A stretch of DNA of 64,000 bases from a virus. The stretch covers positions 25,020 to 89,019 of the IMG/VR virus record IMGVR_UViG_3300032323_000739. One strand, 5' to 3'. The position numbers were made by a program, and so were the translations under genes. The stretch's first letter is position 1. Every line of letters begins with the position of its first letter. Below, one piece after another: positions 10,125 through 26,547 of the stretch. The notes beneath the pieces were generated by a model that was given only the letters and a program-made list of their open reading frames with translations, was not told the origin of the DNA and made no database searches.

Positions 10125-11536
10125 TCACTAGCAAGTTAGAATATTGGCCTAAGATTAAAGATCAACTAGATCAAGTAGGACCTGGATTTTGTTTGGCAAA
10201 ATGGAATCAAGTAACAATTCATCTAGCCACAGGTCATACACATAGTTGTCATCATCCTAACACACATAAGATTCCTCTGCAAGAAATTGCCGCGGACCCT
10301 AGTGCATTACATAATACTCTATTCAAGAAACAACAACGCCAACGTATGTTAGACGGTGAACGTCCAGAAGAATGTAGTTATTGCTGGAATGTTGAGGATA
10401 ATGTTAAAGAAGCACATATATTCAGTGACCGTGTACAAAAAAGTGCAGAATCTTGGAGTCAGAATTTTGAAGAAGTGCTGGCTGCTGGCGCAGAAAATTT
10501 TAATCCTACCTATGTTGAAGTTAGTTTTAGTAATGTTTGCAATTTTAAATGTTCGTATTGTTCACCAGAAGTATCTAGCAAATGGATGGAGGAGATAGAA
10601 CAATATGGGGCTTATCCAACTAGCAACAAATTTAATAATATCGAATGGTTAAAAAGCATTGACAAAATGCCTATACCTAACAAAGACTATAATCCTTATG
10701 TTAATGCGTTTTGGCACTGGTGGCCCGAGTTATATAAGACTCTAAAAGTGTTCCGTATTACTGGCGGCGAACCTTTATTAAGCAAAGATACGTTTAAAGT
10801 TTTAGATCATATCATAGAAAACCCTCGTCCTGAACTTGAACTAATGATTAACAGTAATCTCTGCATACCGGATGAATTGTTTAATAAGTTTGTAGAAAAG
10901 ATGAAACGTATTCAAGGCGAAGGCATGATCAAAGACTTTACCTTGTTTACTAGTTGCGAAGCACACGGCGAGCGAGCAGAATATATTCGCAACGGTTTAA
11001 ATTATAACAAATGGTTAGATAATTGTTATACGTACTTGGACAAAGTACCAAATGGTCGTTTAGGTATAATGAGCACCTATAATATTTTAAGTGTTACAAG
11101 TTACATGCCATTTATGAAAGACTTGTTAACACTAAACAAAACCTTTAATCATTATAAGGATAGAGTACATCCATTAATTTTTGATATTCCATACTTACGT
11201 TATCCAGAACATCTTAGTATGACTATCCTTACACCTGATTATCTTAAACAAGTCGAAGAACAAGTAACGTTTATGTATCAGAACCGTCAAACAGCAGATT
11301 GGCAACCTCTTGCTGGCAACGGTTTTTATGATTGGGAATGTAAAAAGTTAGAACGTGTTTATCATTTGCTAGAAAGCACTTTCAAAGTTGGCGAGCATCT
11401 ACAACCAAGCACTGTAAATAAACGCAAAGATTTTGTACGTTTTGTTGACGAGCATGACCGTCGTCGTGGTACAAATTTCTTACAAACCTTTCCAGAAATG
11501 GAAGAGTTCTACAACCTATGCAAGTCTTTAACATGA
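10121..11536 (+). CDS. Radical SAM protein with N-terminal Cys-rich twitch-like domain
   Basis: CNFKCSYC; ITGGEP; N-terminal FCLAKW...HSCHH...CSYC. Confidence 0.9.
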   Translation: MITSKLEYWPKIKDQLDQVGPGFCLAKWNQVTIHLATGHTHSCHHPNTHKIPLQEIAADPSALHNTLFKKQQRQRMLDGERPEECSYCWNVEDNVKEAHIFSDRVQKSAESWSQNFEEVLAAGAENFNPTYVEVSFSNVCNFKCSYCSPEVSSKWMEEIEQYGAYPTSNKFNNIEWLKSIDKMPIPNKDYNPYVNAFWHWWPELYKTLKVFRITGGEPLLSKDTFKVLDHIIENPRPELELMINSNLCIPDELFNKFVEKMKRIQGEGMIKDFTLFTSCEAHGERAEYIRNGLNYNKWLDNCYTYLDKVPNGRLGIMSTYNILSVTSYMPFMKDLLTLNKTFNHYKDRVHPLIFDIPYLRYPEHLSMTILTPDYLKQVEEQVTFMYQNRQTADWQPLAGNGFYDWECKKLERVYHLLESTFKVGEHLQPSTVNKRKDFVRFVDEHDRRRGTNFLQTFPEMEEFYNLCKSLT

Positions 11537-11964
11537 AATATATTAGTCATAGAGGAAATTTAAAAGGTCCTGAACCTGAATTAGAAAATGAGCCAGGGTA
11601 CATTCAGGACGCTTTAGATGCTGGATTTGATGTAGAAGTTGATGTTTGGTATGTAGATGAAAAATTTATGCTAGGGCATGACGCACCTATATATGATGTA
11701 ACCAAAAACTTTTTATTAGATAGTAGACTTTGGTGTCATGCTAAAACTCCCGAAGCATTAACAGCCATGTTAACAGCCGGAATTCATTGCTTTTGGCATG
11801 AAAATGATGAAAGAACTTTAACTAGTCAGGGATTTATATGGACATATCCACACAAAAAATTAGTTGATCGTTCAGTAGTTGTAATTTTAGACAAGGAATT
11901 AAATCATGAGTATGTCTCACGAGCAGTTGCAGTCTGCGGTGACTACGTTCAATCCTGGCGCTAA
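11533..11964 (+). CDS. Short PLC-like/GDPD-family phosphodiesterase
   Basis: ISHRGN...EN...GFDVEVDVW...LGHD...WCHAK. Confidence 0.7.
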   Translation: MKYISHRGNLKGPEPELENEPGYIQDALDAGFDVEVDVWYVDEKFMLGHDAPIYDVTKNFLLDSRLWCHAKTPEALTAMLTAGIHCFWHENDERTLTSQGFIWTYPHKKLVDRSVVVILDKELNHEYVSRAVAVCGDYVQSWR

Positions 11965-12715
11965 TAAAATTGCTATCTGTTTTAGTGGACAAATTCGCAC
12001 ATGGCGTCGATGCATAGACACATGGATTCATCTTTTAGAACATAATGGTTCTAGAGATAACATAGATGTTTTTTGTCATTTTTGGGATTTTAATACGGTA
12101 CCAAACTCTGTGCCAGATCATCCTAAAGTATCTGCCAAGGTGGATACTGAAGAAATAAAAGAACTAATAGACATTTTAAAACCTAAAAAATATATAATTG
12201 ATTTTGCGCGAGAGTTCCCACTGTTTGATAAAAATCAAGCAATTACACACGGACCGTTTGTTAGTCAATTTTACGGAATCATGAAAGCGGCAAATTTAAA
12301 ACGTCAGTATGAGATTGAAAATCGCATGATGTATAAAGGTGTAGTACGTGCAAGGTATGACGCATACTATACTCACAATGTAACTGAGTTTTATAAAAAT
12401 ATTGCTCCTAATACTATGCACGGGTTTCATATGGGATGGAATCCTGATAACTTTAGAGGGCGTATGGGAGATATTTTTTGGATTGCAGACAGTGACACTT
12501 ATGATCTTATAGCAGACTACTATATCAATCTAGGCTACATGAATAAGAAATGGTTCACTGCTGATCAAACAGATGCCACTCCGGAATGGGTATTTTTTCA
12601 TTACATTAAAAAGAATAATATCGATATACAAAATAATCATTGGGATATTAAACTAATGAGAGAAAACGCAGAACTTAGTTTTGCCAAGAAGGAGGGCGGC
12701 TTTGAAGTCTGGTAA
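11906..12715 (+). CDS. Putative glycan-modifying protein (glycosyltransferase-like)
   Basis: KIAICFSGQIRT...DVFCHFW...VVRARYD, a pattern typical of polysaccharide loci; paralog of the next gene. Confidence 0.5.
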   Translation: MSMSHEQLQSAVTTFNPGANKIAICFSGQIRTWRRCIDTWIHLLEHNGSRDNIDVFCHFWDFNTVPNSVPDHPKVSAKVDTEEIKELIDILKPKKYIIDFAREFPLFDKNQAITHGPFVSQFYGIMKAANLKRQYEIENRMMYKGVVRARYDAYYTHNVTEFYKNIAPNTMHGFHMGWNPDNFRGRMGDIFWIADSDTYDLIADYYINLGYMNKKWFTADQTDATPEWVFFHYIKKNNIDIQNNHWDIKLMRENAELSFAKKEGGFEVW

Positions 12716-13436
12716 GATTGCTATCTGTATTAGCGGAATGCTACGAACAGGAATTCAAGCGTATCCTGTGTTTCGTAATTTTTTTGATTCTCTTGGCGAG
12801 TATGATATTTTTTATCATACCTGGAAGTTAGACTCATCAATATCTAATTTGTTAAAAACAACTTACAAACCTACAAGATTTTTAGAAGAAGATCCGCTTA
12901 ATAATACTAAAGAAAGTTCGTTTGGTAGTATGTTATACAGTATAATGATGGCCAATGAACTTAAAAAACAATATGAGATTGAAAATAATTTCAGATATGA
13001 TCTTGTAATTAAAACAAGGTTTGATCTTGTTTTTCCTAAGACTATTAAATTTCCTGTTGATGAAAATATATGGCCTAGAACAATTTATAGTGTAAACGGA
13101 AATTGTGGTATAAATCATACTGATTATGAAAATCACGGTATTAGTGATGTAATATTTTGGGGAGATAGCCAAAGTATGGACCTGGCAACTAATATTTACA
13201 GGCATTATAAGTACACTACCTTAGTTAAAGACATGTATTTGAGGGACGGCTGGAAAATGGATGTAAAAGATTACTATCTAAGTCCAGGTACTATGATTTA
13301 TCAACGCACAGTTAAACAAAATATAGCACATGTTAGATTGCCGTCTATTGGAGAAGTTCCGTGGAGGGACGATGTTGCTGAGTTAGATCCAGTTAAAGAT
13401 TACGATAAAATAAGAGAGAGATATGCAAAAGGTTAA
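12702..13436 (+). CDS. Putative glycan-modifying protein (glycosyltransferase-like)
   Basis: KIAICISGMLRT...DIFYHTW...YDLVIKTRFD; TTG start at 12702 chosen from the GGAGG SD. Confidence 0.5.
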   Translation: MKSGKIAICISGMLRTGIQAYPVFRNFFDSLGEYDIFYHTWKLDSSISNLLKTTYKPTRFLEEDPLNNTKESSFGSMLYSIMMANELKKQYEIENNFRYDLVIKTRFDLVFPKTIKFPVDENIWPRTIYSVNGNCGINHTDYENHGISDVIFWGDSQSMDLATNIYRHYKYTTLVKDMYLRDGWKMDVKDYYLSPGTMIYQRTVKQNIAHVRLPSIGEVPWRDDVAELDPVKDYDKIRERYAKG

Positions 13437-14241
13437 GACATTATTAGTAGATGGCGATAGTTGGACATACGGCAGTGAAATACGCGATCCCAAGTTGCCA
13501 GAAGAAGTAAAAGATTGGGACCCACCGAATGATGAATATCGATTACCGCGTATTTGGCCAACAAAGTTGGGAGAAATGTTAGGTGCTGACGAAGTGTTTA
13601 ACATCAGTTATCCTGCATCTAGCAATGATGGAATAGTGCGAAGAACAGTAGGATGGATTACTCAAGAATATCTAAGCAAAGGTCGCGATACTAGCGATCT
13701 ATTTGTAGTCATAGGATTTACTAGTCCAGAACGAAAAGATTTTTATTATCGTGACATTGACGACAAATATAAACACTTTTGGTACACACTTTGGCCAATG
13801 TGGAAACATCGTTATCCACAAGAGGAATTAAACAGATTTGCCGACATTTATGCTTCTTATATGTGGAACCCTGAAGAGTATACACATAGATATCTAAATC
13901 AAGTATTCTATTTGCAAACATTGTTTAATCATTACGGCATAAAACATTTATTTTTCCAAGCCTTTTATCAGCGTAATGATATGCATATACGTCAGTGGAC
14001 AGATGATCCATATAACAAACACTACAACGGACAACCAGATCAAATGGTTTGGGACATGATTGATCCTACACGATTTATGCATAAGGATGACAAGATTCAT
14101 AGTTTTCATAACTATATTTTAGATAAAGATACCAGCGAAGGAAAACGAAATAGTATTCTTAACATGCATCCTAGTGAATTAGGACATACATGGTGGGCCG
14201 AACACATTTATGAATACGGCAAAGGAAAAAAATTATGGTAA
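13423..14241 (+). CDS. SGNH/GDSL-family hydrolase or acyltransferase
   Basis: VDGDSWTYG, SSN, C-terminal HPSELGH. Confidence 0.7.
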   Translation: MQKVKTLLVDGDSWTYGSEIRDPKLPEEVKDWDPPNDEYRLPRIWPTKLGEMLGADEVFNISYPASSNDGIVRRTVGWITQEYLSKGRDTSDLFVVIGFTSPERKDFYYRDIDDKYKHFWYTLWPMWKHRYPQEELNRFADIYASYMWNPEEYTHRYLNQVFYLQTLFNHYGIKHLFFQAFYQRNDMHIRQWTDDPYNKHYNGQPDQMVWDMIDPTRFMHKDDKIHSFHNYILDKDTSEGKRNSILNMHPSELGHTWWAEHIYEYGKGKKLW

Positions 14242-15008
14242 AAGAAATTGTAGTTTGCGGGGATAGTTTTGGCTGCGGTTCGGGCATCCCCTTAGAATCT
14301 TGTTTTGAAGCATCTTTTGGTGGACAAGTCGCAGATCATTTTAATGTTCCTTTGAATGTGTATGCTAGATCGGGGTGTTGTAATTATGTGATATATCTGC
14401 AAGTTAAACAAGTAATTGAGGATTATCGTGCTAAAGAAAAACCATTTGTGTTAATATCAACAACTAATCACAGTCGATTTACATTTCCTGTTGATACAAC
14501 TTTAGGATATGTTAACTATACATTGGCTGATGTTGACTACGATAGTTATACTCCTTATTCTGAACATACAGGCCCAGGTCGTAGACCCAAGCCTATAGAA
14601 AATTTTAATAAACCTAAATTAATTAGTGAAACTGTTAGTAACATTTTATATTTTTTAGAACAAAATCCTGGAAATTTAGCACCGTTGTTTTACAGTATTA
14701 AAAGAAAAATAAAAACTGTTGAGCTTTATTTTAGAGATTTGTACGATGACGAAATTAAACAAGTTAATGATACTGGTTTAATATTATTAATGCACAACGA
14801 ATTAAAAGAGGCCGGAATTCCGCATTTAATAATGACACCTAGTGAACACAGAGATCGTTTTATAGATAAAGAAAATTTCTTTTATAATAATTGGGGATAC
14901 TATAGTCAAAAATATCCAGACTTGTACGGTAGCGGACATTGCACTGAAGTCGGTCACATGGAAGTAGCCAAAAAAATAATTAAACGAATAGAAGGAACGA
15001 GTTTGTGA
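14235..15008 (+). CDS. SGNH/GDSL-family protein
   Basis: CGDSFG, GCCN, GHCTEVGH. Confidence 0.65.
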   Translation: MVKEIVVCGDSFGCGSGIPLESCFEASFGGQVADHFNVPLNVYARSGCCNYVIYLQVKQVIEDYRAKEKPFVLISTTNHSRFTFPVDTTLGYVNYTLADVDYDSYTPYSEHTGPGRRPKPIENFNKPKLISETVSNILYFLEQNPGNLAPLFYSIKRKIKTVELYFRDLYDDEIKQVNDTGLILLMHNELKEAGIPHLIMTPSEHRDRFIDKENFFYNNWGYYSQKYPDLYGSGHCTEVGHMEVAKKIIKRIEGTSL

Positions 15009-15691
15009 AATTAGTGTATGCTAACGGTGATAGTTGGACGCATGGTGACGAATTATCTGCGTTCGATGACATAGATCAAACTTCTGTTCGATATTATAAT
15101 TCTTGGCCGTGGAAATTATCTCAAATTTTAGACATTCCGGTATGTGTTAATGATGCACAAGGTGGCACAGGTAATTTACGTATTTTTCGTAGAACTAACG
15201 AATTTATATATAGATGGATTGGTTCAGGAAAATCTGTCAGTGATTTATTAGTAGTAGTAGGATGGTCTACGCCCGAGCGTACAGAAATTGGTGAAGGAAA
15301 AGGAATATATCCAATACAGATTCAGGGTCCTTTGTATTTTACAGATTTACCACGTGATGATGTTTCTTTAGAAAACTATCATAAAGCATATTACGAAATA
15401 TATTCAGACAGTTACGGAGAAAACTTAACAGCACTATATATGATGAATTTAAGAATGTTGTGCCAGGGATTAGGAATAAAATATTTTGATTTTGTTGCTA
15501 TAGGTAATCAACCTCAGCATTGGCAAGACTATATGAAATCAAAGTGGAATATAGAATTAACAAATATGTATATGAAAAGTACCTGGAGTGCTGAAGTTTA
15601 TAATAATAAATGGAGTAAACATAAGCACGGACATCCTACTAAAGAAACTCATGAACTATGGGCTAACATTTTAGCCAAGGAAATACAATGA
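15005..15691 (+). CDS. SGNH/GDSL-family protein
   Basis: NGDSWTHG, GTGN, GHPTKETH; GTG start. Confidence 0.65.
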   Translation: MKLVYANGDSWTHGDELSAFDDIDQTSVRYYNSWPWKLSQILDIPVCVNDAQGGTGNLRIFRRTNEFIYRWIGSGKSVSDLLVVVGWSTPERTEIGEGKGIYPIQIQGPLYFTDLPRDDVSLENYHKAYYEIYSDSYGENLTALYMMNLRMLCQGLGIKYFDFVAIGNQPQHWQDYMKSKWNIELTNMYMKSTWSAEVYNNKWSKHKHGHPTKETHELWANILAKEIQ

Positions 15692-16410
15692 ACATAATAA
15701 TTGGACTATGCGGCCAAGGAAACCGATTTAAACAAGTAGGTTACGAATTGCCTAAATATCTTATTACGTATCATGGAGCACCAATGATTTATCATAGTGT
15801 AGAAACTATAGGTATTAGAGGTAGAATACATTTTGTAGTAAGGAAAGAACATTTAGAACAATTTAATTTTTTAGAAAAAATGTTGTTAGGGTTAGGAGAC
15901 GAAATCATAACCATAAATGGTAACACACAAGGTGCCGCAGAAAGTTTATTATATACTAAGCCTTATATCAAAGATTTAAATGCTCCTATGCTTAGTGTAA
16001 ATGGTGACCAATTTATGGATTGGAAATCTTATCAATTTCAAGATGAAATACAACGGAATCCTGAAACAAGTTATATTGTAACTTACAACGAAACTAGCCC
16101 TAAATGCAGTTATGTTCGAGAGGATCAAGATCGTGTTGTTGAAGTAAGAGAGAAACAAGTTATTAGTAACGACGCAACTACGGGGTATTATCATTGGGCT
16201 CACACACATGATTTTTTTCAAGATGCTGAACAAATGATTAAAGAAGGACACAAAGAAAACGGAGAGTTTTATGTTGCTCCAGTTTATAATTATACTATTG
16301 CTAGAGGAAAAACAGTAAAAAAGTTTTCTATAAGTAATAAAGAGTTTTATCCAGTAGGCACTCCCGACGATTTAACAAAATTTCAAAGACTAAGCACAAG
16401 GTTTGATTAA
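15688..16410 (+). CDS. Sugar-phosphate nucleotidyltransferase (NTP_transferase family)
   Basis: GLCGQGNRF...LPKYL, TQGAAES, VNGDQ, EVREK, NGEFYVAP, VGTPDDL. Confidence 0.85.
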   Translation: MNIIIGLCGQGNRFKQVGYELPKYLITYHGAPMIYHSVETIGIRGRIHFVVRKEHLEQFNFLEKMLLGLGDEIITINGNTQGAAESLLYTKPYIKDLNAPMLSVNGDQFMDWKSYQFQDEIQRNPETSYIVTYNETSPKCSYVREDQDRVVEVREKQVISNDATTGYYHWAHTHDFFQDAEQMIKEGHKENGEFYVAPVYNYTIARGKTVKKFSISNKEFYPVGTPDDLTKFQRLSTRFD

Positions 16411-16745
16411 TGAAAAAAGCACACATTGATAACTTTATTAAAGGATGGTTCGTTGGAAATTTTGAACCTAGCCTACTTAAAGAAAATTTTGAAGTTGGTT
16501 TCCATCAGCACAAAGCAGGCGATTTTCATCAAGATCATTTTCATAAACACAGTACTGAAATTAACTTAGTAGTAGAGGGCAAAGTCAAAATAAACGGAGA
16601 AGTATTTAGGGCAGGTGACATCTTTGTTTTGGAGCCTTACGAAATTAGCCAATGCGAATATCTTACAGATGTTAAATTAGTTGTAGTACGGAATCTAAGC
16701 GACCCTAATGATAAGTTTGAAGTCCAAATAGTTGACAAAAAATAA
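16410..16745 (+). CDS. Small cupin protein (possible isomerase/epimerase)
   Basis: HQDHFHKHSTEINLVVEG...GDIFVLEP cupin motifs. Confidence 0.7.
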   Translation: MKKAHIDNFIKGWFVGNFEPSLLKENFEVGFHQHKAGDFHQDHFHKHSTEINLVVEGKVKINGEVFRAGDIFVLEPYEISQCEYLTDVKLVVVRNLSDPNDKFEVQIVDKK

Positions 16746-16760
16746 AAAATACTTTACAAT
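16732..16760 (+). promoter_or_regulatory. sigma70-type promoter for the RLP-kinase-cyclase-SDR unit
   Basis: TTGACA (16732-16737), 17 nt spacer, TACAAT (16755-16760); AAGGA SD; ATG at 16777. Confidence 0.75.
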
Positions 16761-16776
16761 AACAGAAAGGAAAAGT

Positions 16777-18009
16777 ATGAAATTTTTTCGAGAACTAACT
16801 CAAACAGAAAAAGATCGTTGTGTTATTGCAACATATTATATTGAAACGTATTCTGACATAGGAGATTTACGCGATGCCGCTTGGAATCTTGCTATAGGTC
16901 AAAGTGTTGGAAATCCAAAAATACGAAATCAGTGGGAAACTGATGAATTGTTTGAAAGGTCATCCTGTGTGATTTATCACAATGAATCAGAATTAACAGG
17001 CAAGCATAGTGGCACAATTAAGATTGGATTTCCTAAAATAAACTCCGATTGGCAAGGGGATGGCATCAGTCATCTTATGTGTCAATTAATGGGCGGCCAG
17101 ATGGATATTAATGTGTTTAAAGCCTGCAGATTAAAACACATTGAGTTTCCTAAAGATGTCGAACAGCAATTTTTAGGACCTCGACAAGGTATTACGGGTA
17201 TTAGAAAATTTGTTAATCGCTATGACAAACCTCTGTCAGGAGCCATTGTAAAACCTAAAACTGGCATTAGTCCTGCTACTCTAGCAGACATGGTTAAAGA
17301 ATTAATAGACGGCGGTGTAGATTTTATCAAGGAAGACGAGATATTGTCTAACCCTAGTTTTTGTCGTTTAGAGGATCGTGTTGAATTAATTTCTAACATT
17401 GTTAATAATTGCGGTCGTGGAGTTATCTATTGCTTCTGTATTAATGGCGATCATCATACTATTCTTGACCGTGCTAAGTTTGTAGCCAACAATGGCGGTA
17501 ACGGTATTCACATTAATTTCTGGAGCGGTCTAGGAGTTTATAATTCAATACGCAGATTAGATTTTCCATTGTTTATTCATTACCAGAAGAGTGGTGATAA
17601 GATTCTTACAGACAAACGCAACCCGTTTGGTATTGATTGGTCAGTACTGTGTGACCTTGCTGGACTATGCGGTGTAGATACTATTCATGCGGGCATGTGG
17701 GGAGGCTATTTAAGTGACAACGAAGATGAACTTAAATACACCATGGAAACTCTGCATAAACGAAATGTTCTTCCTGCACTAAGTTGTGGCATGCATCCTG
17801 GGATTGTTAATCCAACAGCAGAAAAATTTGGTACTGATTTTCTTGCTAACTGCGGCGGCGCTATACACGGGCACCCAGACGGTACTCTAGCCGGAGCATT
17901 AGCCATGCGTCAGGCCATTGACAAAACTCCTGGAAAAGAGTTTTTGACAGCAATAGAAAAATGGGGCTATGTAGGCGGTTCCTTACCCGAGTGGGTATTA
18001 GATTTTTAA
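16777..18009 (+). CDS. RuBisCO-like protein (form IV, RLP)
   Basis: IVKPKTG, GVDFIKEDE, DTIHAG, LSCGMHPG, GGAIHGHPDG; lacks several carboxylase residues. Confidence 0.9.
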   Translation: MKFFRELTQTEKDRCVIATYYIETYSDIGDLRDAAWNLAIGQSVGNPKIRNQWETDELFERSSCVIYHNESELTGKHSGTIKIGFPKINSDWQGDGISHLMCQLMGGQMDINVFKACRLKHIEFPKDVEQQFLGPRQGITGIRKFVNRYDKPLSGAIVKPKTGISPATLADMVKELIDGGVDFIKEDEILSNPSFCRLEDRVELISNIVNNCGRGVIYCFCINGDHHTILDRAKFVANNGGNGIHINFWSGLGVYNSIRRLDFPLFIHYQKSGDKILTDKRNPFGIDWSVLCDLAGLCGVDTIHAGMWGGYLSDNEDELKYTMETLHKRNVLPALSCGMHPGIVNPTAEKFGTDFLANCGGAIHGHPDGTLAGALAMRQAIDKTPGKEFLTAIEKWGYVGGSLPEWVLDF

Positions 18010-18010
18010 T

Positions 18011-18970
18011 ATGGATATAATTGAACTAAAAGGCGGTAGTTTAAATTCAACTTGTTTATATGTTGACGGTGATCGCAAATTTGTAAGAAAAACTATTTCG
18101 ACTACTGCCGATAGAGAATACGGCTATGTACGTTGGTACAGTCAATTAAAAAAATTACAAAGATTTAATCAGATAATTCCCCAGCACGTTCCTCGAGTTC
18201 TGGATGCTGGTGTGTGTGATAAAGGTGCATATTTTGACATTGAATATATTGATGCTAAAGATATTAAAACACTGTTTAAAGAAAATTTACTAGATGCCCA
18301 CCAGACTGAAAAAATGCATCAACAGTTGTGGCAAGCGTTTGATACTTTACATCAACACACTTATCAACCAAACATTAGTAGTTTAAAACTTTATTTTCAG
18401 GAAGAAGTTTTACAAAAAATTAATGATGCTAGACAGTTTTCAGAGTTTGAAAACTTTTATCAAATGGATGTCTATGTACATTGGGGAGAAACATTTAGTG
18501 GTATTAAACATAAATTAGAACAATTATCTAAGTTGTTTGATCAAGTTATAACTACAGAAAGTTACGTACACGGAAATCCAACGCTAGAAAATATTCTTTA
18601 CAGCGAAGAAACAGGTATAGTGTTTATTGACTTATATGAAGAAGGTATTGTAGACAGCAAGTTTATGGACTATAGTCAGATACTACAATGTAGTAGCAGT
18701 TACTACGGTATTCTTAATGACAGTGTGATACGTGTAAAAGGAAACGTTACAGGATTCGACACTAAGTTTCCAAAAAATTTATTGTACTTCGATAAACTGT
18801 TTAATGAAGAATTAGAGCGTAGATTTACAAATCAGGAATATTTGTTGATAAGATTATTTGAAGCCACACAGTTTTTTCGTATGTTGCCGTTTAAATGTCA
18901 CGCTGGAAACATAGAAGCGGCAAAGTTTTTTTATGCTCATGCTTGCGCTCTCGTAAATAAACTATTATGA
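18011..18970 (+). CDS. APH/choline-kinase-like phosphotransferase
   Basis: LKGGSL, VRK, HGNPTLENIL, VFIDL. Confidence 0.65.
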   Translation: MDIIELKGGSLNSTCLYVDGDRKFVRKTISTTADREYGYVRWYSQLKKLQRFNQIIPQHVPRVLDAGVCDKGAYFDIEYIDAKDIKTLFKENLLDAHQTEKMHQQLWQAFDTLHQHTYQPNISSLKLYFQEEVLQKINDARQFSEFENFYQMDVYVHWGETFSGIKHKLEQLSKLFDQVITTESYVHGNPTLENILYSEETGIVFIDLYEEGIVDSKFMDYSQILQCSSSYYGILNDSVIRVKGNVTGFDTKFPKNLLYFDKLFNEELERRFTNQEYLLIRLFEATQFFRMLPFKCHAGNIEAAKFFYAHACALVNKLL

Positions 18971-20028
18971 CATGGCGTGTAAAGACTACCCTTCCTGTAG
19001 AGTTTGATATAGTCAAAGTACCTAATGCATTGGATTGGGACATAATTCCCGGTCAGCGTAGAATAGCCGTGGTTGATGAAACAGTCTATGCTTTGTACAA
19101 AGACAAAATTCCCGCTGGCACAGAGATTTTTACAGTACGCAGTACAGAATCTGAAAAAGATTGGAAAAACGCCGAACGTGTTTTACAGTTTTTTCAAGAT
19201 ATAAAATTACTACGGAGAGAAACGGTTATTGCTGTAGGCGGTGGAGTTCTTTTAGACTTAGTAGGATTTTGTTGCAGTATATATCGTAGAGGTGTTCCTT
19301 ATGTTAGAATACCAACTACACTATTGGCTATTGTTGATGCTAGTGTAGGTGCAAAAACAAGCATTAATCATTTTGGGTTTAGAAATAGAATTGGTAGTTT
19401 TTATCCACCGACATTGACATTAATTGATAAGTCTTTTATTAAAACACAAGATCACAGAGAAATATCAAACGGCATGGCAGAAATTTTAAAGTTAGCCATA
19501 GTTCTTGATTATCAATTATTTGAATTAATTGAACTTAATCCGCAGGAATTACTAAGACTTAAATTTCAAAATTATGTGTTAGCAGATAAAATAATTGATC
19601 GTGCAATTTCGGGTATGACTGAAGAACTGAATGATAATCTTTGGGAACGAGACTTACAGCGTCCTGTAGATTTTGGACATACATTTAGTCCTATGGTTGA
19701 AATGAAAAATGTTCCTAATTTGTTACATGGTGAAGCAGTAATGTTAGATTGTCTTTTAAGTGCTTGTATTAGTAATTTAAGAGGATATATCAGCAACGAT
19801 CATTTACACCGTATTTTTAAAACTGTTCGCAGTTGTGACTTGCCTACAGAACACAAAGATTTTTATAATGTTGACCTGCTGTGGGCAGGTTTACAAGATG
19901 TAATGAACCATCGCAATGGTAATCAATATATACCTGTTCCTATAAGTATTGGCCGTTGCGAAATTATCAATGACGTAACACGCAGTGAAATAGAACAGGC
20001 CTGCGACCGAATGAGAAGTATGCAATGA
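18967..20028 (+). CDS. Sedoheptulose-7-phosphate cyclase, 2-epi-5-epi-valiolone synthase (EEVS) type
   Basis: DHQS-family GGGVLLD and PTTLLAIVDASVGAKT; EEVS fingerprint MTEEL.DNLWE..L.RPVDFGHTFSP, LLHGEAV, NHRNG. Confidence 0.85.
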   Translation: MTWRVKTTLPVEFDIVKVPNALDWDIIPGQRRIAVVDETVYALYKDKIPAGTEIFTVRSTESEKDWKNAERVLQFFQDIKLLRRETVIAVGGGVLLDLVGFCCSIYRRGVPYVRIPTTLLAIVDASVGAKTSINHFGFRNRIGSFYPPTLTLIDKSFIKTQDHREISNGMAEILKLAIVLDYQLFELIELNPQELLRLKFQNYVLADKIIDRAISGMTEELNDNLWERDLQRPVDFGHTFSPMVEMKNVPNLLHGEAVMLDCLLSACISNLRGYISNDHLHRIFKTVRSCDLPTEHKDFYNVDLLWAGLQDVMNHRNGNQYIPVPISIGRCEIINDVTRSEIEQACDRMRSMQ

Positions 20029-20699
20029 AAACAGTATTAATTACAGGTTCTAGTCGAGGGCTAGGTAAAGCACTGACAGAAACATTTTTACAAAATGGAT
20101 GGAAAGTTGTTGGAGTTAGTAGAACAGATTTAAAGAGTTATGACAACTATACACACATAGTTGCTGATGTGGCTAATATTGGCCAAGTCCATACTGCATT
20201 TGATCTACTTAAAAAAACTAAAACTAAAATTGATGTGTTAATAAACAATACGGCTGCTTTTCATATGGGCGACTTTGCAGATTCAAAATATTTTGATATT
20301 GCGAATGTTATTGATACTAATGTAAAAGGCACAATGTATGTGACTAATCAAGCGTTAACAATAATGGAGCCAGGTTCAAAAGTTGTTTTTGTTAACAGTG
20401 TAGCAGGACTAAGAGAAATTCAACATCAGAGCATTTACTGTGCCAGCAAGGCTGCTTTAAAAAGTTTTGCCGGAGTGTTAGGCCAAGAACTTAGACAGAG
20501 GGGTATAAAAGTATCTAGTATACATCCAGGCGGCATTAACACAACCTTATGGAATGAAAATAATCCATATCCTTGCGGTGATGTTACTAACGCTTTAGAT
20601 CCACACCATCTTTCAGAAATGATCTATCGCATCTCGTCTGATACTAGTAATACTGAATACAAAACTATAACAATGTTTCCTGAAGTGGAGTGGCACTAA
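20025..20699 (+). CDS. Short-chain dehydrogenase/reductase
   Basis: TGSSRGLG, LINNTA, NS, YCASK, HPGGINT. Confidence 0.9.
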   Translation: MKTVLITGSSRGLGKALTETFLQNGWKVVGVSRTDLKSYDNYTHIVADVANIGQVHTAFDLLKKTKTKIDVLINNTAAFHMGDFADSKYFDIANVIDTNVKGTMYVTNQALTIMEPGSKVVFVNSVAGLREIQHQSIYCASKAALKSFAGVLGQELRQRGIKVSSIHPGGINTTLWNENNPYPCGDVTNALDPHHLSEMIYRISSDTSNTEYKTITMFPEVEWH

Positions 20700-21394
20700 T
20701 GTACGACATAGTGTTTATCAGTTACGGTGAGCCTAATGCAGAAGCCAATTGGGAACGATTAAAAAATAGATATCCCTTGGCTAAACGTGTTACCAATGTG
20801 GCAGGAATTCATCAAGCACATATTGCCGCGGCTAAAAAAGCCTTTACTAAAATGGTTTGGGTAGTGGATGGCGATGCAGAGGTATTACCTACATTTAATT
20901 TTGACTACGAAGTTAGCGAATGGGATTTAGATGTAGTACATGTATGGCGCAGTCGTAATCCTATAAATGATTTAGAATACGGGTACGGCGGAGTAAAACT
21001 ATTGCCACGTAAGTTAACGCTGGATATGGATATTTCTAAACCAGACATGACTACCAGTATTAGTACAAAATTTAAAGCAATGGCTGAAGTTAGTAATATT
21101 ACTGCTTTTAACACTGATCCGTTTAATACTTGGAAGAGTGCGTTTCGCGAGTGCGTTAAGTTAGCCAGTAAAGTTATAGATGGACAAGTTGACACTGAAA
21201 CTGAGCATAGGTTATTAGAGTGGTGTACCCCACACGTAGATAGATTGCACGGTAACTGGGCGTTTCTTGGCGCAGAGGATGGCAAAATGTACGGCATGCA
21301 AAAGGCCGGAGATTTAAAAGCACTAGGTAAAATAAATGATTTTGAATGGCTACGACAATTCTTTTCAAGATATCCCGTTCCACCAAATAGTTAA
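20699..21394 (+). CDS. Glycosyltransferase-like protein (GT-A, DxD)
   Basis: SYGEPNAE...WVVDGDA...YGYGGVKL...AFRECVKL; paralog of 9228..10124. Confidence 0.55.
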   Translation: MYDIVFISYGEPNAEANWERLKNRYPLAKRVTNVAGIHQAHIAAAKKAFTKMVWVVDGDAEVLPTFNFDYEVSEWDLDVVHVWRSRNPINDLEYGYGGVKLLPRKLTLDMDISKPDMTTSISTKFKAMAEVSNITAFNTDPFNTWKSAFRECVKLASKVIDGQVDTETEHRLLEWCTPHVDRLHGNWAFLGAEDGKMYGMQKAGDLKALGKINDFEWLRQFFSRYPVPPNS

Positions 21395-22334
21395 ATTTGG
21401 TCAACGCACTATGCTTGAACGACCTTTGTTCAACGTAAGTTGGATACTAGGTCGTTTTTGTAATTATAATTGTAGTTACTGCTGGCCCTATGCTAGAAGT
21501 GATAAATTGGATCATCTAGATTATGAAACTTATACAAACACCGTTGACGAAATAAAACGTCAGGCACGTGAACAAGGCTTCACTGATTTTCATTGGAGTT
21601 TTAGTGGCGGCGAACCTACAGCATATAAACGATTATTAGATTTAGTTAAACATTTAGACGATGGAGTAAAATCTCCTTATCAAAGTATCCACATGACTAC
21701 TAATCTTAGTCCAGGAAGTAAGTGGTGGGGCACCTGGTGTAAAAATACTGAGATGCTACAACGCAGAAGTTTAACAGCCAGTTTCCATACAGAATTTGCA
21801 CGTGAACAAGAATTTGGAGACAAATGTCTACAATTAAATTACGAAGGTGTTCATGTAACAGTAAATCAGGTAATGGTTCCAGAATTGTTCTGGGACACCT
21901 ATGCACGATGCGAACGTCTATACAAACGAGGTATAAATGTAACACTAAAACCTCAAAGCGATCCTACGGCTAGTTTTGTAGTCAGTGGTTACGATGACAA
22001 AATGTTAGAGGTTATGCAAACAGGATTTCCGCAATTATCGAGTGGCGAGCAGTTGTATCAGGTAGCATTATTTGACGAGTTAGGGCACGAATATTTGTTT
22101 GATCAAGCCGAAAGATTTAACGCATTTGGTTTTAACAAATTTCAAAATTGGACTTGCAATGCTGGCTATCAAAGTGTTATAATAAGAAGCAACGAAGTTA
22201 AACGTAGTTATAGTTGTCACGATGAATCATTAGGAACTTTGATAAGCGGATTTAAATTATTTGACAGTCCTAAAAAATGTATAACTCCAACTTGTGTTAG
22301 TTCGGCAGATAGTAAAATACCAAAAATAAAATGA
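21336..22334 (+). CDS. Radical SAM protein with C-terminal Cys cluster
   Basis: CNYNCSYC, SGGEPT, WTCNAG...C...C....C. Confidence 0.9.
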   Translation: MILNGYDNSFQDIPFHQIVKFGQRTMLERPLFNVSWILGRFCNYNCSYCWPYARSDKLDHLDYETYTNTVDEIKRQAREQGFTDFHWSFSGGEPTAYKRLLDLVKHLDDGVKSPYQSIHMTTNLSPGSKWWGTWCKNTEMLQRRSLTASFHTEFAREQEFGDKCLQLNYEGVHVTVNQVMVPELFWDTYARCERLYKRGINVTLKPQSDPTASFVVSGYDDKMLEVMQTGFPQLSSGEQLYQVALFDELGHEYLFDQAERFNAFGFNKFQNWTCNAGYQSVIIRSNEVKRSYSCHDESLGTLISGFKLFDSPKKCITPTCVSSADSKIPKIK

Positions 22335-23002
22335 AAAGATTAATAGCGTTCGGAGATTCCATGACCTATGGTGTAGGATTAGAAGATTGCTGGCCGGATA
22401 CCGAGAAACCTAGTAAGCACTGTTGGCCCGAAATAATTGCGTCGACACTTGGAAGAAAATGCATTAACAAATCAGTGCCAGGGTCTAGTAACAAACGAAT
22501 ATGGTATTCTATATCTAAGTTTAAATTCCGTTCAGACGATTTGGTATTAATTTTATGGACATATCCTGATAGAACTGCGGTTATTCGAACTCCCTTTAAT
22601 ATAACAAATTTATTGCCTAGTCAAGTAGGCAATAGTTATGGAGAAGTAGAAATAATGGCACGTAGTTATTATGAAAATCTTCATGCTTTCTATGATTCTG
22701 ATGTCGCAAGCAAACTTTATATAAGAGATGCTACTAGAAAAATAAAAGATCTGGGACTAGAGTTTTATCAGATGATTGCTGAGCCTCGAGATAAGTTTTT
22801 ATTTGAAAATATAGAACATATTTCGCTATTCATGAGTAACTATGAAAGAAATTATAATAAAGCCCTAGACGACAATCATGCCGGACCCGACGGTCACAAA
22901 GCATTTGCTCGAGATTTTTTAAAATATATAAATGTTGATACAGATTTAGTTGCTCCTAAACCTTTAAGTTTTTTTGAAAAGATTAAAAAAAGATGCAGAT
23001 AG
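22331..23002 (+). CDS. SGNH/GDSL-family protein
   Basis: FGDSMTYG, GSSN, DDNHAGPDGH. Confidence 0.7.
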   Translation: MKRLIAFGDSMTYGVGLEDCWPDTEKPSKHCWPEIIASTLGRKCINKSVPGSSNKRIWYSISKFKFRSDDLVLILWTYPDRTAVIRTPFNITNLLPSQVGNSYGEVEIMARSYYENLHAFYDSDVASKLYIRDATRKIKDLGLEFYQMIAEPRDKFLFENIEHISLFMSNYERNYNKALDDNHAGPDGHKAFARDFLKYINVDTDLVAPKPLSFFEKIKKRCR

Positions 23003-23583
23003 ATACAGAACATTTACACCACTGGATGAGAGCAATTCGATCTAGCAAAGATCCTATACGTACCATGGATGCTTTTTGGAGAGGCCAAATTCTTAGTAAA
23101 GAATGGTTAATAGACAATATTAAACCGTTTGTCAATCAAGAAGTGTCTATAGACATACATGGCGGGTGGGTAGGAGTGTTATCTAGTATGTTGTTTCAAT
23201 CTGGCTTATCTATTAAACATATTCGTAGTATCGACATAGATCCAGACTGCAAGGATATAGCATCTAATATGAATCAGATAGAACTAGAACAAGGAAGATT
23301 TAGAGCTGTCACAGCAGATATGTGTACTATTCGCAGTGATGCAGATATTATAATTAATACTAGTTGTGAACACATTACACAAGATCAATACGACACTTGG
23401 TCAATAGGACATCCTAACAACAGTCTATTGGTATTACAGAGCAACAACTACAGCATTCCTGAACACGTTAGGCCTGCTCAAGATTTAGAAGAATTTAAAT
23501 CTCAATGTGATGTAAATGTATTATGGGCAGGAGAATTAGAACTACCCCTGTACAAGCGATTTATGATTATAGGAACTAGATGA
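22993..23583 (+). CDS. Class I SAM-dependent methyltransferase-like protein
   Basis: DIHGGWVG, SIDIDP, TADM, INTSCEH. Confidence 0.65.
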   Translation: MQIDTEHLHHWMRAIRSSKDPIRTMDAFWRGQILSKEWLIDNIKPFVNQEVSIDIHGGWVGVLSSMLFQSGLSIKHIRSIDIDPDCKDIASNMNQIELEQGRFRAVTADMCTIRSDADIIINTSCEHITQDQYDTWSIGHPNNSLLVLQSNNYSIPEHVRPAQDLEEFKSQCDVNVLWAGELELPLYKRFMIIGTR

Positions 23584-24449
23584 TGAACAAACATTTTATT
23601 GAAATAGCACAATTTTACATGACTAATGTTTGTAATCTTACCTGTAATAATTGCTGTACTTTCAATAATAGAAGATTTTCGGGACACTATAAATTTAACG
23701 ATTATCGAGATCATTATATTGAGTGGTCAAAAAAAGTTGATTTAGATTTTATGAGTATCCTAGGTGGAGAACCGTATGCTAATCCAGATTTACCAAATTG
23801 GATAGATGGTCTCAGATCCTGCTGGCCAGATAACAAAAATTTTAGTATTTGTACAAACGGATCTTATCTCTCTACCTTCAAAGAATTGTCAAGAGATGCA
23901 ATAAAAAAGGGATTATGGTTAGAAATAAATGTTCACGATCCTAATCAATATGATGATATTAAAAACAATTTGTTAGAAATTATCAGTGTCTTTAATTATG
24001 AAGAAAAAGTTATACCTGATAAATTTCATGTAGATCATCTTGAATACTATGCTGACGGTATAAAAATAGCTCAAATAGTCAAATATTATAATTTTTTTAA
24101 TTCAGCAACTACAGAGATTAAAAATAGAGTAACGTATTTTCATAATAGTAATCCAGAAATTGCTCACAGTGCTTGTTCAGCATTTGATTGTCATTATTTT
24201 GTAAGAGGCGAACTTTATAAATGTTTTTTAACAGCAGTGGGAAGAGATTTAAATCAGCAATTTTTGATAGAGGATCGTGCTAAAACTCTTCTAGAAAACT
24301 ATCAGGCCTGCTCACCGTGGTCTTCGGACGAACAAATTAAACAATTTATGAACAATATTAAAACCCCAATATCTCAATGTAGTCTTTGTCCAGAAAAATT
24401 AAATTTACAGCCTATATGGCCTTTAGAAAAGACCAAAATTAAATTGTAG
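23580..24449 (+). CDS. Radical SAM protein
   Basis: CNLTCNNC, LGGEP, TNG, C-terminal Cys residues. Confidence 0.85.
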   Translation: MMNKHFIEIAQFYMTNVCNLTCNNCCTFNNRRFSGHYKFNDYRDHYIEWSKKVDLDFMSILGGEPYANPDLPNWIDGLRSCWPDNKNFSICTNGSYLSTFKELSRDAIKKGLWLEINVHDPNQYDDIKNNLLEIISVFNYEEKVIPDKFHVDHLEYYADGIKIAQIVKYYNFFNSATTEIKNRVTYFHNSNPEIAHSACSAFDCHYFVRGELYKCFLTAVGRDLNQQFLIEDRAKTLLENYQACSPWSSDEQIKQFMNNIKTPISQCSLCPEKLNLQPIWPLEKTKIKL

Positions 24450-24509: not shown

Positions 24510-25433
24510 ATGAAAATTTTAATGACCGGAACCAGTGGATTTATCGGATCACATCTTAAACCACTGATTGAAAAAAATCATACTTTTTACTCTCTTAAAA
24601 GCGATTTGTTAGATTTTGAAGCAGTAACCAAAGAAGTATTAGATTTTAAACCAGATGTCATAGTACACCTTGGTGCTCGTACAGAAGTTGAAAAAAGTTT
24701 TTATGAGCAAATAACATTTAGTCAAATTAATTATGTTGGTAGCGTCAACTTAATCGAAGCGGCTAGCAAAGTAGAGAATTTTAAAAATTTTGTTTTTGCC
24801 AGTACCATGGAAGTGTATGGCTGGCAACCTATTAGCGACGAAATTAAAGATAACGGTCAACCTTTAAATCATGTTGCGTTTGATGAAAATACCGAACCTC
24901 ACCCTAATGCTCCCTATGCTGTAGCCAAATACGGTGTAGAAAAATATCTTGAATATATGCATCGTAGTTGCGGCTTTCCTTTTAGTGCCATTCGTCAGAC
25001 TAATAGTTATGGTCGTAAAGATAATGATTTCTTTGTTGTAGAACAAATTATTACACAGATGTTAAAAAATCCTAATGAGGTAAATTTTGGTTATGCCGAG
25101 CCTTTTCGCAATTTTATTTTTATTGATGATTTACTTGCCGCTTGGATGACATTAATAGAAGATCCTAACATCGGTAAAACAGGAAAAATTTTTACAGTAG
25201 GACCAGACAATCCTATCAAGATAAAAGATCTAGCCAGCATTATTGCTAAGAAACTAAACTGGAACGGTGCAATTAACTGGAATAAAAAACCTAAGCGTCA
25301 GGGAGAAATTTACTGGTTAAACAGCAACCATAATCTTTTAACTAAACACACTGGGTGGACTCCTAAGGTTAGTTTAAATGACGGCATTGATCGAACTATA
25401 GAAATTTGGAGAAACATTTTACATGTTAAATGA
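24510..25433 (+). CDS. NAD-dependent NDP-sugar epimerase/dehydratase
   Basis: TGTSGFIG, HLGA, ASTMEVYG, PYAVAK, R..N.YG, RNFIFIDD. Confidence 0.9.
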   Translation: MKILMTGTSGFIGSHLKPLIEKNHTFYSLKSDLLDFEAVTKEVLDFKPDVIVHLGARTEVEKSFYEQITFSQINYVGSVNLIEAASKVENFKNFVFASTMEVYGWQPISDEIKDNGQPLNHVAFDENTEPHPNAPYAVAKYGVEKYLEYMHRSCGFPFSAIRQTNSYGRKDNDFFVVEQIITQMLKNPNEVNFGYAEPFRNFIFIDDLLAAWMTLIEDPNIGKTGKIFTVGPDNPIKIKDLASIIAKKLNWNGAINWNKKPKRQGEIYWLNSNHNLLTKHTGWTPKVSLNDGIDRTIEIWRNILHVK

Positions 25434-26547
25434 ACTGCAAACTCATTGGGACAACAAAGTTGTTAATTACAATTTAGAAAAGTATAACTGGCCTGCGTGG
25501 GCGTTAAGTGTCATACAAGAAGTTGCACCACAAGTAAAAGAACTTGAAACAATGCATGAAGTTCTTACTCCCGTTGAGATTGTGCGGGTAAGTCAGCATG
25601 TGCAAAATTCATGCAGTCGTAAAGATTTTATGGAACGATTTGATGAATTTGCCGCAGGCATAGTTCCACAACGAATTGCTGGTAAACGTTACATGATTCA
25701 ACGTCAAGGCACTCTTCGTGTGGTAATTCCCAATCAAGAAAGCGTAGGACGTAGACTGGCGTTTCATCAAGGTATTTTTGTAGGAAATGGTCGCGGTTGT
25801 CGTACTATCTGGACCCCATTTACAGAAGCCAAAGGTACTAATACTATGTGGATGTTAGACTTAGATATTAGTCGAGAAATTACAAAACGTGTGCTTGCTG
25901 AAAAGTGGAGTCTTGAAAAGTTTGAAGAAGAAAGTCTAAAACATGCCTGGCCTGTTACACTGGAACCCGGCCAAAGCCACTTGTTCTTTCAAGAACATAT
26001 ACATGGCAATAAAAATAACACAGAGGGATATACTCGTGTTAGTATGGACATGCGTATTCTTATTGAAGGCGAAGAGTGGGGTCGTAGACTTCCTGGCGGA
26101 TTTATGCGACTGCCAGGCGACTATGAAGTTGCAGACACAATGGACTATACTGGTAAAAGTTTTATTACCTATGCTGGTTGGAATAGTAAGTTTAGTAAAG
26201 ATATTCCATTACCGATGCAACGTGCAATTATAGAGCCATACTGTCAAAAGAATAAGATTGCTTATACAAGTTACGAGTTTGAAAATGAACACATGGACTG
26301 GCAACCTGGACTAGAATACTACATTAAAGAACGTCCAGACGGTATTGTACTGTGCAGTATGTACTGTCTAACAGACGACGTGCAACGACGTAGCGAATTA
26401 CTGCAACTGGCATTAGATCTAGGTGTAGAACTACACTTTGCCAACGAACTAGTAAGTTTAAAGTCAAAGAAAGATTTAGAAAAAATCGAAACCTATCTAA
26501 ACTTTGCTGTACCTAAAAAAGGTCCGCATGTGTGGGAAGAACAATAA
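25423..26547 (+). CDS. Fe/2OG oxygenase (StrG-like) with HxG motif, fused to a C-terminal carbohydrate-cluster domain; candidate halogenase
   Basis: AFHQGIF...IWTPFT...HIHGN...TRVSMDMR. C-terminal IPLPMQR..I..YC...DGIVLCS...LHFANE resembles (from memory) LIC12192/TIGR04323 proteins. Confidence 0.65.
   Translation: MLNELQTHWDNKVVNYNLEKYNWPAWALSVIQEVAPQVKELETMHEVLTPVEIVRVSQHVQNSCSRKDFMERFDEFAAGIVPQRIAGKRYMIQRQGTLRVVIPNQESVGRRLAFHQGIFVGNGRGCRTIWTPFTEAKGTNTMWMLDLDISREITKRVLAEKWSLEKFEEESLKHAWPVTLEPGQSHLFFQEHIHGNKNNTEGYTRVSMDMRILIEGEEWGRRLPGGFMRLPGDYEVADTMDYTGKSFITYAGWNSKFSKDIPLPMQRAIIEPYCQKNKIAYTSYEFENEHMDWQPGLEYYIKERPDGIVLCSMYCLTDDVQRRSELLQLALDLGVELHFANELVSLKSKKDLEKIETYLNFAVPKKGPHVWEEQ

Follow-up and report, generated by a model that had tools for sequence, protein, structure and literature searches.

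The stretch considered here, called the window, comprises bases 25020-89019 (64 kb) of an 89-kb IMG/VR viral contig (IMGVR_UViG_3300032323_000739) with a CheckV completeness of 24%. Its source is a large freshwater phage which features both cyclitol genes and a RuBisCO-like cassette in one tight operon. In order, this operon encodes a sugar-phosphate nucleotidyltransferase, a small cupin, a RuBisCO-like protein (RLP), a kinase-like protein, a cyclase assigned to the EEVS type (synthases of 2-epi-5-epi-valiolone) and a short-chain dehydrogenase/reductase (SDR), and it is followed by a candidate transferase gene (Table 1). All six open reading frames (ORFs), described in the initial annotation as adjacent or overlapping, were confirmed. 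They lie tightly packed on the plus strand: successive genes first overlap by 1 base, are then separated by 31 bases and by 1 base and finally overlap by 4, 4 and 10 bases, the last overlap joining the SDR gene to the following ORF. A tail-collar-domain protein is encoded at the start of the window, and the nearest cultured relative, as judged by one ATPase with 51.5% identity, is the Pseudomonas jumbo phage PA5oct. The stretch is also present in freshwater metagenomes of a second study, and among the public runs checked for it no RNA dataset was listed as holding the window sequence.

The sigma-70-like promoter match TTGACA-17-TACAAT, which had been quoted ahead of the last four genes, is indeed located there, with a predicted promoter function. 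It is the sole such site in the window (0.02 expected by chance), matches 11 of 12 consensus positions and spans the last codons of the cupin gene and the cupin-RLP gap. Among related loci, it recurs in only two of 80 (L002 and L011). Since an AAGGA ribosome-binding site and then an ATG (16777) come after the motif, this ATG rather than the TTG at 16732 is most likely the start of the RLP.

Table 1. Position and assignment of the operon genes and of associated features in the window.
Feature	Position	Strand	Size and basis of assignment
GDPD-like (glycerophosphodiester phosphodiesterase-like) mini phosphodiesterase	11518..11964	+	148 aa; phrog_34507 match, family profile
Sugar-phosphate nucleotidyltransferase	15688..16410	+	240 aa; PF00483, 32.5 bits (cut-off 21.2)
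Small metal-type monocupin	16410..16745	+	111 aa; phrog_24762, family profile
Sigma-70-like promoter match TTGACA-17-TACAAT	16732..16760	+	motif match
RuBisCO-like protein (RLP), 'long' allele	16777..18009 (alternative TTG start 16732)	+	410 aa from ATG; PF00016, 149 bits
Kinase-like protein (protein-kinase-like fold)	18011..18970	+	319 aa; Pfam Fructosamin_kin, APH
EEVS-type sedoheptulose-7-phosphate cyclase (assigned from sequence)	18967..20028	+	353 aa; DHQ_synthase fold
Classical SDR	20025..20699	+	224 aa; adh_short, 136.6 bits
DGD-motif protein with GT-A-like N-terminal half, candidate transferase	20690..21394	+	predicted model of low confidence

The cyclase had been taken for an EEVS, and this assignment withstood closer comparison, which sets it apart from the dehydroquinate synthase AroB. 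Its best solved relative is ValA, the EEVS of validamycin synthesis (4p53; 262 bits), ahead of a cyanobacterial desmethyl-4-deoxygadusol synthase (DDGS; 5tpr, 220 bits), 3-dehydroquinate synthases (DHQSs; at most 146 bits) and 2-deoxy-scyllo-inosose synthase (DOIS; 79 bits). Pfam matches were obtained to PF01761 (126 bits) and PF24621 (81.5 bits), and the NAD and metal motifs GGGVL..D, GAKT..N, AEILK, FGH and HGEAV align with those of ValA. EEVSs are discriminated from DDGSs by Leu267, Asp281 and His360 (ValA numbering) instead of Glu, Ala and Thr (PMC10666671). The aligned residues of the window protein, Leu221, Asp235 and His315, correspond to the EEVS state and are invariant in 16 homologues. 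By its score ranking and all three discriminators, the protein is an EEVS-type sedoheptulose-7-phosphate cyclase, the product of which is predicted. In the cyclase tree, it groups with cassette-linked cyclases of aquatic bacteria, the phage cyclases being nested within this clade (support 99), and the natural-product EEVSs of actinomycetes and Burkholderia lie in a different part. The 50,697 phage records on deposit yielded no EEVS-type cyclase; the query gave only AroB-like matches of 25-32% identity, several of which come from records that are bacterial assemblies. Likewise, a literature search returned no paper describing a phage EEVS and no characterised member of the kinase-like/cyclase/SDR cassette, and a 2026 cyclitol review from a group long active in the field makes no mention of phages or polysaccharides.

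The distribution of this cassette in cells was assessed by an alignment-query scan of one genome per prokaryotic species, which gave 272 cyclase relatives; the best 80 of these loci were read, and 21 of them contain the kinase-like/cyclase pair. The nearest cellular cyclases are 38-53% identical to that of the window. Relatives occur in Caenarcanales, a gammaproteobacterium, Actinomarina, Magnetovibrionaceae, Holophagaceae, Woesearchaeota, another archaeon, Desulfobulbaceae, Myxococcota, Fibrobacterota, Balneolaceae (Balneolota), Polynucleobacter, Bacteroidota, Marinomonas and Prochlorococcus, with Pseudomonadota among the phyla spanned. In all 21 loci, the kinase-like gene precedes the cyclase gene by about 1 kb, and in most an SDR gene follows about 1.1 kb downstream; the only other widely shared neighbour is a nucleotidyltransferase, which 18 of the 21 have at about -1.8 or +1.9 kb. 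GT2, GT4, Wzx-type, GDP-mannose dehydratase, DegT and GtrA genes abound in the flanks, which mostly represent surface-glycan contexts. Neither an RLP of the window family nor a window-type cupin was found in any of the 21 cellular cassettes. The natural-product EEVS loci of actinomycetes and Burkholderia leaf symbionts, in turn, lack this kinase-like gene and this SDR. In a metagenome-assembled genome (MAG) of Balneolaceae (L101:9003-16604), two unknown genes come after the triad of kinase-like protein, cyclase and SDR, and then an RLP-cassette-type HAD-nucleotidyltransferase fusion, a methyltransferase, a GDPD-like protein and a GT2, without an RLP. In two Prochlorococcus single-cell genomes (L119 and L124), the kinase-like gene and the cyclase gene are followed by an aldo/keto reductase in the SDR position; no adjacent nucleotidyltransferase was detected there, leaving the kinase-cyclase pair only. 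A RuBisCO gene in a Woesearchaeota MAG (L095, 2861-4156, minus strand), located 6 kb from a cyclitol cassette, was considered as an RLP-EEVS pairing and rejected, being a bona fide form III-type enzyme on the opposite strand (PF00016 307 bits, N-domain 149 bits) with a HAD hydrolase alongside; its position looks coincidental.

A corresponding scan of viral sequences revealed 118 contigs with the cyclase, and the following counts refer to the best 80 of them. The kinase-like gene stands directly upstream of the cyclase gene in 76 and the SDR gene directly downstream in 77, and a nucleotidyltransferase accompanies them in 71. About 58 contigs (group A) feature the cellular order of nucleotidyltransferase, kinase-like protein, cyclase and SDR without RLP and cupin, their nucleotidyltransferases being 52-60% identical to those of the cellular cassettes. 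The window order with cupin and RLP between nucleotidyltransferase and kinase-like protein is found in at least 21 (group B), with cyclases 53-97% identical to that of the window, and an RLP is present in 17 of the 17 group B contigs that cover its slot. Accordingly, the co-occurrence of RLP and EEVS, for which a neighbourhood search had been proposed, does exist elsewhere, in at least these 21 viral contigs. One further contig (L204) has a window-type nucleotidyltransferase directly followed by the triad, again without cupin and RLP.

The RLP belongs to a phage cassette of its own. Its relatives in IMG/VR amount to 241 viral contigs, and in the best 80 of these the conserved unit consists of the nucleotidyltransferase (77-78 of 80 loci), the cupin (65-67), the RLP (80) and the 148-aa GDPD-like protein (63-64). 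In most loci having the latter, its gene adjoins the 3' end of the RLP gene; in the window, it is displaced about 4-5 kb upstream. Its translation features HRG, ExD and GHD motifs, and the family profile matches the glycerophosphodiester phosphodiesterase 7e0v (E 1.5e-4). Neighbours of the RLP cassettes include DUF7796 proteins, methyltransferases, epimerases, WavE and GT11. A cyclase is missing in 72 of the 80 loci, and kinase-like protein, cyclase and SDR are all present in only seven. The window RLP itself is 82-88% identical to RLPs of phages without the cyclase, and no RLP was found in any cultured phage among the 50,697 deposited records. In one short-allele RLP cassette without a cyclase (L304:7073-9408), the gene after the RLP encodes another APH-like kinase, which has a canonical HGD and is 22% identical to the kinase-like protein of the window, with a carbamoyltransferase behind it.

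The best NCBIfam match of the RLP is rubisco_III, with 206 bits against a cut-off of 497. In an alignment with the RuBisCOs of P. horikoshii (2cwx) and T. kodakarensis (3kdo), K175, K177, K201, D203, E204, H327, S379, G381 and G403/404 are kept, and the changes are E60Q, T65N, W66P, N123Q, H294Q, R295K, H298D and K334Y. With Q, Q, Q, K, D and Y at E60, N123, H294, R295, H298 and K334, the protein falls outside the bona fide RuBisCOs of forms I-III, and the large-chain fold, the retained K175, carbamyl-K201, D203 and E204 and the changed carboxylase residues place it in form IV in the broad sense. Owing to this residue pattern relative to the archaeal enzymes, the RLP is predicted to keep the Mg-carbamate enolisation core and one phosphate site and to be incapable of carboxylation. 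The cupin matches phrog_24762 (E 3.5e-33; Pfam matches below cut-off), and its His43, His45 and Glu50 are invariant in 26 homologues. Besides PDB cupins (E 1.4e-6), its family profile retrieves KdgF, the Cap5F cupin and small proteins of the 'mannose-6-P isomerase'/Cupin_2 kind.

Within group B, the RLP slot holds either of two alleles which are about 49% identical, one of 412 aa (the type of the window) and one of 372-379 aa; the KPK, KEDE, HYQKSG and IHAGMWG motifs are kept in both. Two pairs of contigs illustrate the exchange. Between L170 and L176, the nucleotidyltransferases are 94%, the cupins 68%, the kinase-like proteins 95%, the cyclases 95% and the SDRs 92% identical, whereas the RLPs (L170:7802-9037 and L176:4656-5792) share 50%. 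Between L168 and L011, with the nucleotidyltransferase left out of the comparison, the values are 98% for the cupin, 94% for the kinase-like protein, 95% for the cyclase and 91% for the SDR, whereas the RLPs share 49%. Since operons that are about 95% identical elsewhere carry RLPs of only about 49-50% identity, the RLP has been exchanged by recombination, in one pair together with the cupin, while the slot always keeps an RLP. This swapping explains why phages with RLPs 80-90% identical can carry nucleotidyltransferases only 38% identical. The divergence of nucleotidyltransferase and cupin from the RLP was also considered as a change tied to the gain of the cyclase; this was rejected as the type-2 nucleotidyltransferase clade described below occurs without the triad and the discordance reflects RLP allele swapping.

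The nucleotidyltransferase of the window features the GxxGxGxRF loop (GLCGQGNRF) and PK motifs. In the trees, it falls in the RLP-cassette clade, outside that of the cellular cyclitol cassettes, and more precisely in a 'type-2' clade (Shimodaira-Hasegawa-like approximate likelihood-ratio support, SH-aLRT, 94) of the RLP-cassette family which also holds L204 and the cupin/RLP cassettes without triad L250, L251, L280 and L304. A tblastn search over the 89-kb contig found no nucleotidyltransferase besides this one. The cyclitol cassette's own nucleotidyltransferase is missing in the window lineage and the RLP-cassette enzyme is the only one on the contig. L204 and L101 show that nucleotidyltransferases of the RLP-cassette family accompany the triad without an RLP.

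For the kinase-like protein, a bilobal protein-kinase-like fold is supported by an AlphaFold (AF2) model built with 26 sequences (mean predicted local distance difference test, pLDDT, 93.6) and by Foldseek, which gave 5-methylthioribose kinase (MtnK), FN3K, APH(4)-Ia and N-acetylhexosamine 1-kinase (NahK) as top matches, all with a probability of 1.0. Two of these best matches, MtnK and NahK, phosphorylate anomeric hydroxyls. The KGGS Gly-rich loop, the ATP-binding K27, the Mg-binding N194 and D207 of IDxYEE are invariant in 26 sequences of the family. In the motif HGNxTLEN...IDxYEE (HGNPTLEN at residues 187-194 of the window protein), Asn occupies the position of the catalytic Asp in 28 of 29 aligned sequences, the window protein included, and only the archaeal member L092 has Asp. 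From the alignment, this Asn is a conserved feature of the family and not a sign of decay, and the invariant Glu next to it could serve as base. The SDR carries TGSSRGLG, NNTA, Ser and YCASK motifs and an Arg after the second strand, and is probably NADP(H)-dependent.

The initial annotation had combined all six genes into one pathway to a nucleoside diphosphate (NDP)-C7-cyclitol, with the RLP supplying an enediolate-type step. Its donor route is supported: in cells as well as in phages, the EEVS-type cyclase forms a conserved unit with kinase-like protein, SDR and nucleotidyltransferase, which fits an NDP-cyclitol donor. The membership of RLP and cupin was not upheld, as both are absent from the 21 cellular and the roughly 58 phage cassettes and 72 of 80 RLP cassettes do without the cyclase. 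The literature search agrees with the annotation's statement that an RLP and an EEVS are not combined in any described pathway. With a probability of roughly 55%, the operon is instead a chimera of two separable modules, the first making an NDP-carbasugar and the second being the RLP cassette. The conservation of the four-gene unit in different domains of life and in roughly 58 contigs of phages points to a specific route of cyclitol activation.

Beyond the observed gene identities, active-site signatures, cassette conservation and mosaic history, we infer the chemistry, including the sequence of reactions, the shared use of the nucleotidyltransferase and the glycan acceptor, as follows. The cyclase would convert sedoheptulose 7-phosphate of the host to 2-epi-5-epi-valiolone, the C1 ketone of which would be reduced by the SDR to a saturated C7 cyclitol. 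The kinase-like protein would then phosphorylate the new pseudo-anomeric hydroxyl, and the only nucleotidyltransferase of the operon would make the NDP-cyclitol, which GT-A-like proteins of the island, e.g., the product of the gene following the SDR, may place in a glycan. The second module (cupin, RLP and the displaced GDPD-like protein) most likely would reshape a keto-sugar phosphate by Mg-carbamate-dependent enolisation into a second substrate for the same nucleotidyltransferase. That this module is not required for cyclitol formation is the best explanation of the comparative data. The high identity of the window RLP to RLPs of cyclase-free phages means that a cyclitol-specific role is not indicated. 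Accounting for this near constancy and for the dispensability of RLP and cupin to the cyclitol cassette elsewhere, both probably perform one and the same sugar-phosphate conversion here and in the 200-odd further cassettes of phages.

Several observations weigh against this two-module chimera. The six-gene order persists over cyclase identities of 53-97%, and the slot retains an RLP despite the allele swap, both of which would fit a joint pathway too. All characterised APH, FN3K and MtnK relatives carry a catalytic Asp (HGD) where the kinase-like family carries Asn, and phosphorylation by this protein is therefore putative. The nucleotidyltransferase is not of the cellular cyclitol-cassette type, and convergence of the type-2 enzymes on the latter was seen in none of 34 comparable conserved columns, which is a weak test. 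As the type-2 clade occurs also with cupin and RLP alone, the RLP product could be the only substrate of this enzyme. Moreover, the contig represents about a quarter of the genome and a second nucleotidyltransferase may exist elsewhere in it.

The joint pathway just mentioned would have the RLP enolise, and the cupin isomerise or epimerise, a keto-cyclitol phosphate delivered by cyclase and kinase, with reduction and nucleotidylation to follow. It draws on the six-gene order shared by at least 21 viral contigs, on the RLP in all 17 covering the slot, on the tight gene junctions and on the enolisation core of Lys175, carbamyl-Lys201, Asp203 and Glu204 retained in the RLP; in addition, the finding of either allele in nearly identical operons suggests that the slot and not the allele is selected for. 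Nevertheless, such a pathway is unlikely in view of the cyclitol cassettes that manage without RLP and cupin (21 of 21 cellular loci, about 58 phage contigs and L204), the close similarity of the RLP to those of cyclase-free phages and the existence of short-allele RLP cassettes without the triad. As a matter of chemical reasoning only, the spacing from phosphate to carbonyl in a C7-phosphorylated valiolone also differs from that in known RLP and RuBisCO substrates. Any working part of RLP and cupin in carbasugar synthesis, be it epimerisation or isomerisation of a keto-cyclitol phosphate or the supply of a heptulose phosphate to the cyclase, with a glycan containing a glycosidase-resistant carbocyclic pseudo-sugar as the outcome, is regarded as improbable. 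If true, it would be the first role of the RuBisCO superfamily in nucleotide-(pseudo)sugar biosynthesis and the first carbasugar in a glycoconjugate.

Alternatively, the triad might make a free cyclitol or cyclitol phosphate, e.g., a glycosidase inhibitor, signal or protectant, which is never nucleotide-activated, the nucleotidyltransferase serving the RLP module only. This would be in keeping with the known natural C7-cyclitol products, all of which are small molecules, and with the affiliation of the window nucleotidyltransferase to a family that is found also with cupin and RLP alone and shows no convergence with the cyclitol-cassette enzymes. Still, 18 of 21 cellular and 71 of 80 viral loci combine the triad with a nucleotidyltransferase, the type-2 enzyme is linked to the triad alone in L204, and the glycan-locus contexts as well as the GT-A-like gene after the SDR gene speak for activation, so that a purely free product is doubtful. 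A chemistry other than the valiolone scheme, with a different cyclitol or with the kinase-like protein acting as a binding or scaffold subunit or as another transferase to give a product class not yet described, would suit the Asn at the catalytic position, the separation of cassette-linked cyclases from characterised EEVSs in the tree and the want of a characterised cassette member in the literature, but has little probability given the three EEVS discriminators and metal/NAD motifs of the cyclase and the Gly-rich loop, Lys, Mg-binding Asn and IDxYEE Asp of the kinase-like protein, whose invariant Glu could be the base.

The two-module operon can be compared with several known systems. The best described is the GDP-valienol branch of acarbose and validamycin synthesis (AcbC/ValA, AcbM/ValC, AcbO, AcbL, AcbN, AcbU, AcbJ, AcbR/VldB and AcbS/VldE), which employs a ROK-type 7-kinase, a 2-epimerase, a dehydratase/reductase pair, a HAD phosphatase and a GT20-like pseudoglycosyltransferase (Tsunoda et al., 2022; PMC9200736). 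Both routes would lead from sedoheptulose 7-phosphate to an NDP-C7-cyclitol serving a transferase, by way of an EEVS-type cyclase and subsequent redox, kinase and nucleotidyltransferase steps. In contrast, the set of the window is minimal with four enzymes, shorter and recruited from other families: none of the enzyme types listed after the cyclase, from the ROK-type kinase to the GT20-like transferase, is encoded by the six genes or the next one. The fold of the kinase-like protein is protein-kinase-like and not of the ROK type, and its catalytic position is occupied by Asn. The nucleotidyltransferase is a short PF00483 protein with no detectable match in a locus of S. hygroscopicus (L131) that may hold the validamycin cluster. 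The candidate transferase is small and GT-A-like, and the genes belong to a glycan locus of a phage or of the cell surface instead of an antibiotic cluster of actinomycetes.

Phage RLPs designated 'Form IV-like' were reported earlier, their function being left open and their gene context not analysed (Jaffe, Castelle, Dupont and Banfield, 2018/2019; bioRxiv 10.1101/386292, PMC6389311). Likened by source and description, these proteins and the RLP of the window share the origin from IMG/VR phage contigs, the high divergence and the loss of carboxylation residues; here, the RLP is additionally placed in a cassette of nucleotidyltransferase, cupin, RLP and GDPD-like protein, which in one lineage is fused to the cyclitol triad. 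In the 5'-methylthioadenosine (MTA)-isoprenoid shunt of Rhodospirillum rubrum, an RLP catalysing an enolisation or isomerisation stands next to a small cupin, and MtnK and MtnW belong to methionine salvage. The window resembles these systems in the RLP beside a small cupin and in MtnK as the best structural match of the kinase-like protein. It differs from them in lacking MtnA, MtnP and other salvage genes, in its context of nucleotide-sugar and glycan synthesis, in the RLP changes H294Q, R295K and K334Y and in the association of the kinase-like protein with the cyclase and not with the RLP. Homologues of the cupin and the GDPD-like protein are also found in heptose/glycan islands of the cultured cyanomyoviruses Bellamy, SynMITS9220M01, S-SM2 and S-CAM9. 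These islands likewise hold kinases, nucleotidyltransferases, epimerases, glycosyltransferases and sedoheptulose-7-phosphate-derived heptose genes; unlike the window, they are without RLP and EEVS-type cyclase.

The known C7-cyclitols (carbasugars) are without exception small-molecule natural products, i.e., acarbose, validamycin, kirkamide and gadusol. With the cassette present in surface-glycan loci from numerous phyla of bacteria and archaea, and its cyclase in at least 118 viral contigs, the present comparison suggests a use of nucleotide-activated carbasugars as building blocks of glycans. Carbocyclic units are not cleavable like a glycoside, which would be of consequence for the recognition between phage and host and for the ability to withstand depolymerases. 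Besides, the six-gene fusion constitutes a defined, clonable system in which a non-carboxylating RuBisCO relative stands beside enzymes with a predictable substrate, sedoheptulose 7-phosphate, and a predictable first product.

The gene after the SDR gene had been described as GT-like on account of a DxD-type motif. This motif is present as DGD at residues 60-62 and is invariant. In group B, the gene is co-inherited with the triad in 17 of 21 contigs, at about +1.7 kb; the four most divergent contigs (L179-L181 and L201) have only a 27-32% identical relative elsewhere in the locus. A paralogue in the window (9228-10124) shows 33-34% identity. No Pfam match was obtained, and a protein atlas search gave only viral clusters of unknown function. 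The AF2 model is of low confidence (pLDDT 57); its N-terminal 130 residues align to GT-A enzymes, the best VIA-align match being B4GALNT1 (Z 9.2), followed by other GT-A enzymes, with the MobA and IspD nucleotidyltransferases at Z 7-8. On the basis of this model, 'GT-like' is a reasonable designation, although not an established one.

The surrounding island (6916-15691 and 20690-21394) contains paralogous gene pairs, namely 6916/7784, 11906/12681 (phrog_13607, faint DUF7796), 13423/15005 (DUF6071) and 9228/20690 (the DGD-motif genes), which look like a serial duplication of transferase-like genes. At least five radical S-adenosylmethionine (SAM) genes were detected in the island (10121-11536, 21336-22334, 23580-24449, 43752-45011 and 51041-52249). 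It also encodes a GDSL hydrolase (22331-23002), an NDP-sugar epimerase/dehydratase (24510-25433) and, at 25423-26547, a fused 'sporadic carbohydrate cluster' 2-oxoglutarate (2OG)-oxygenase/LIC12192 protein.

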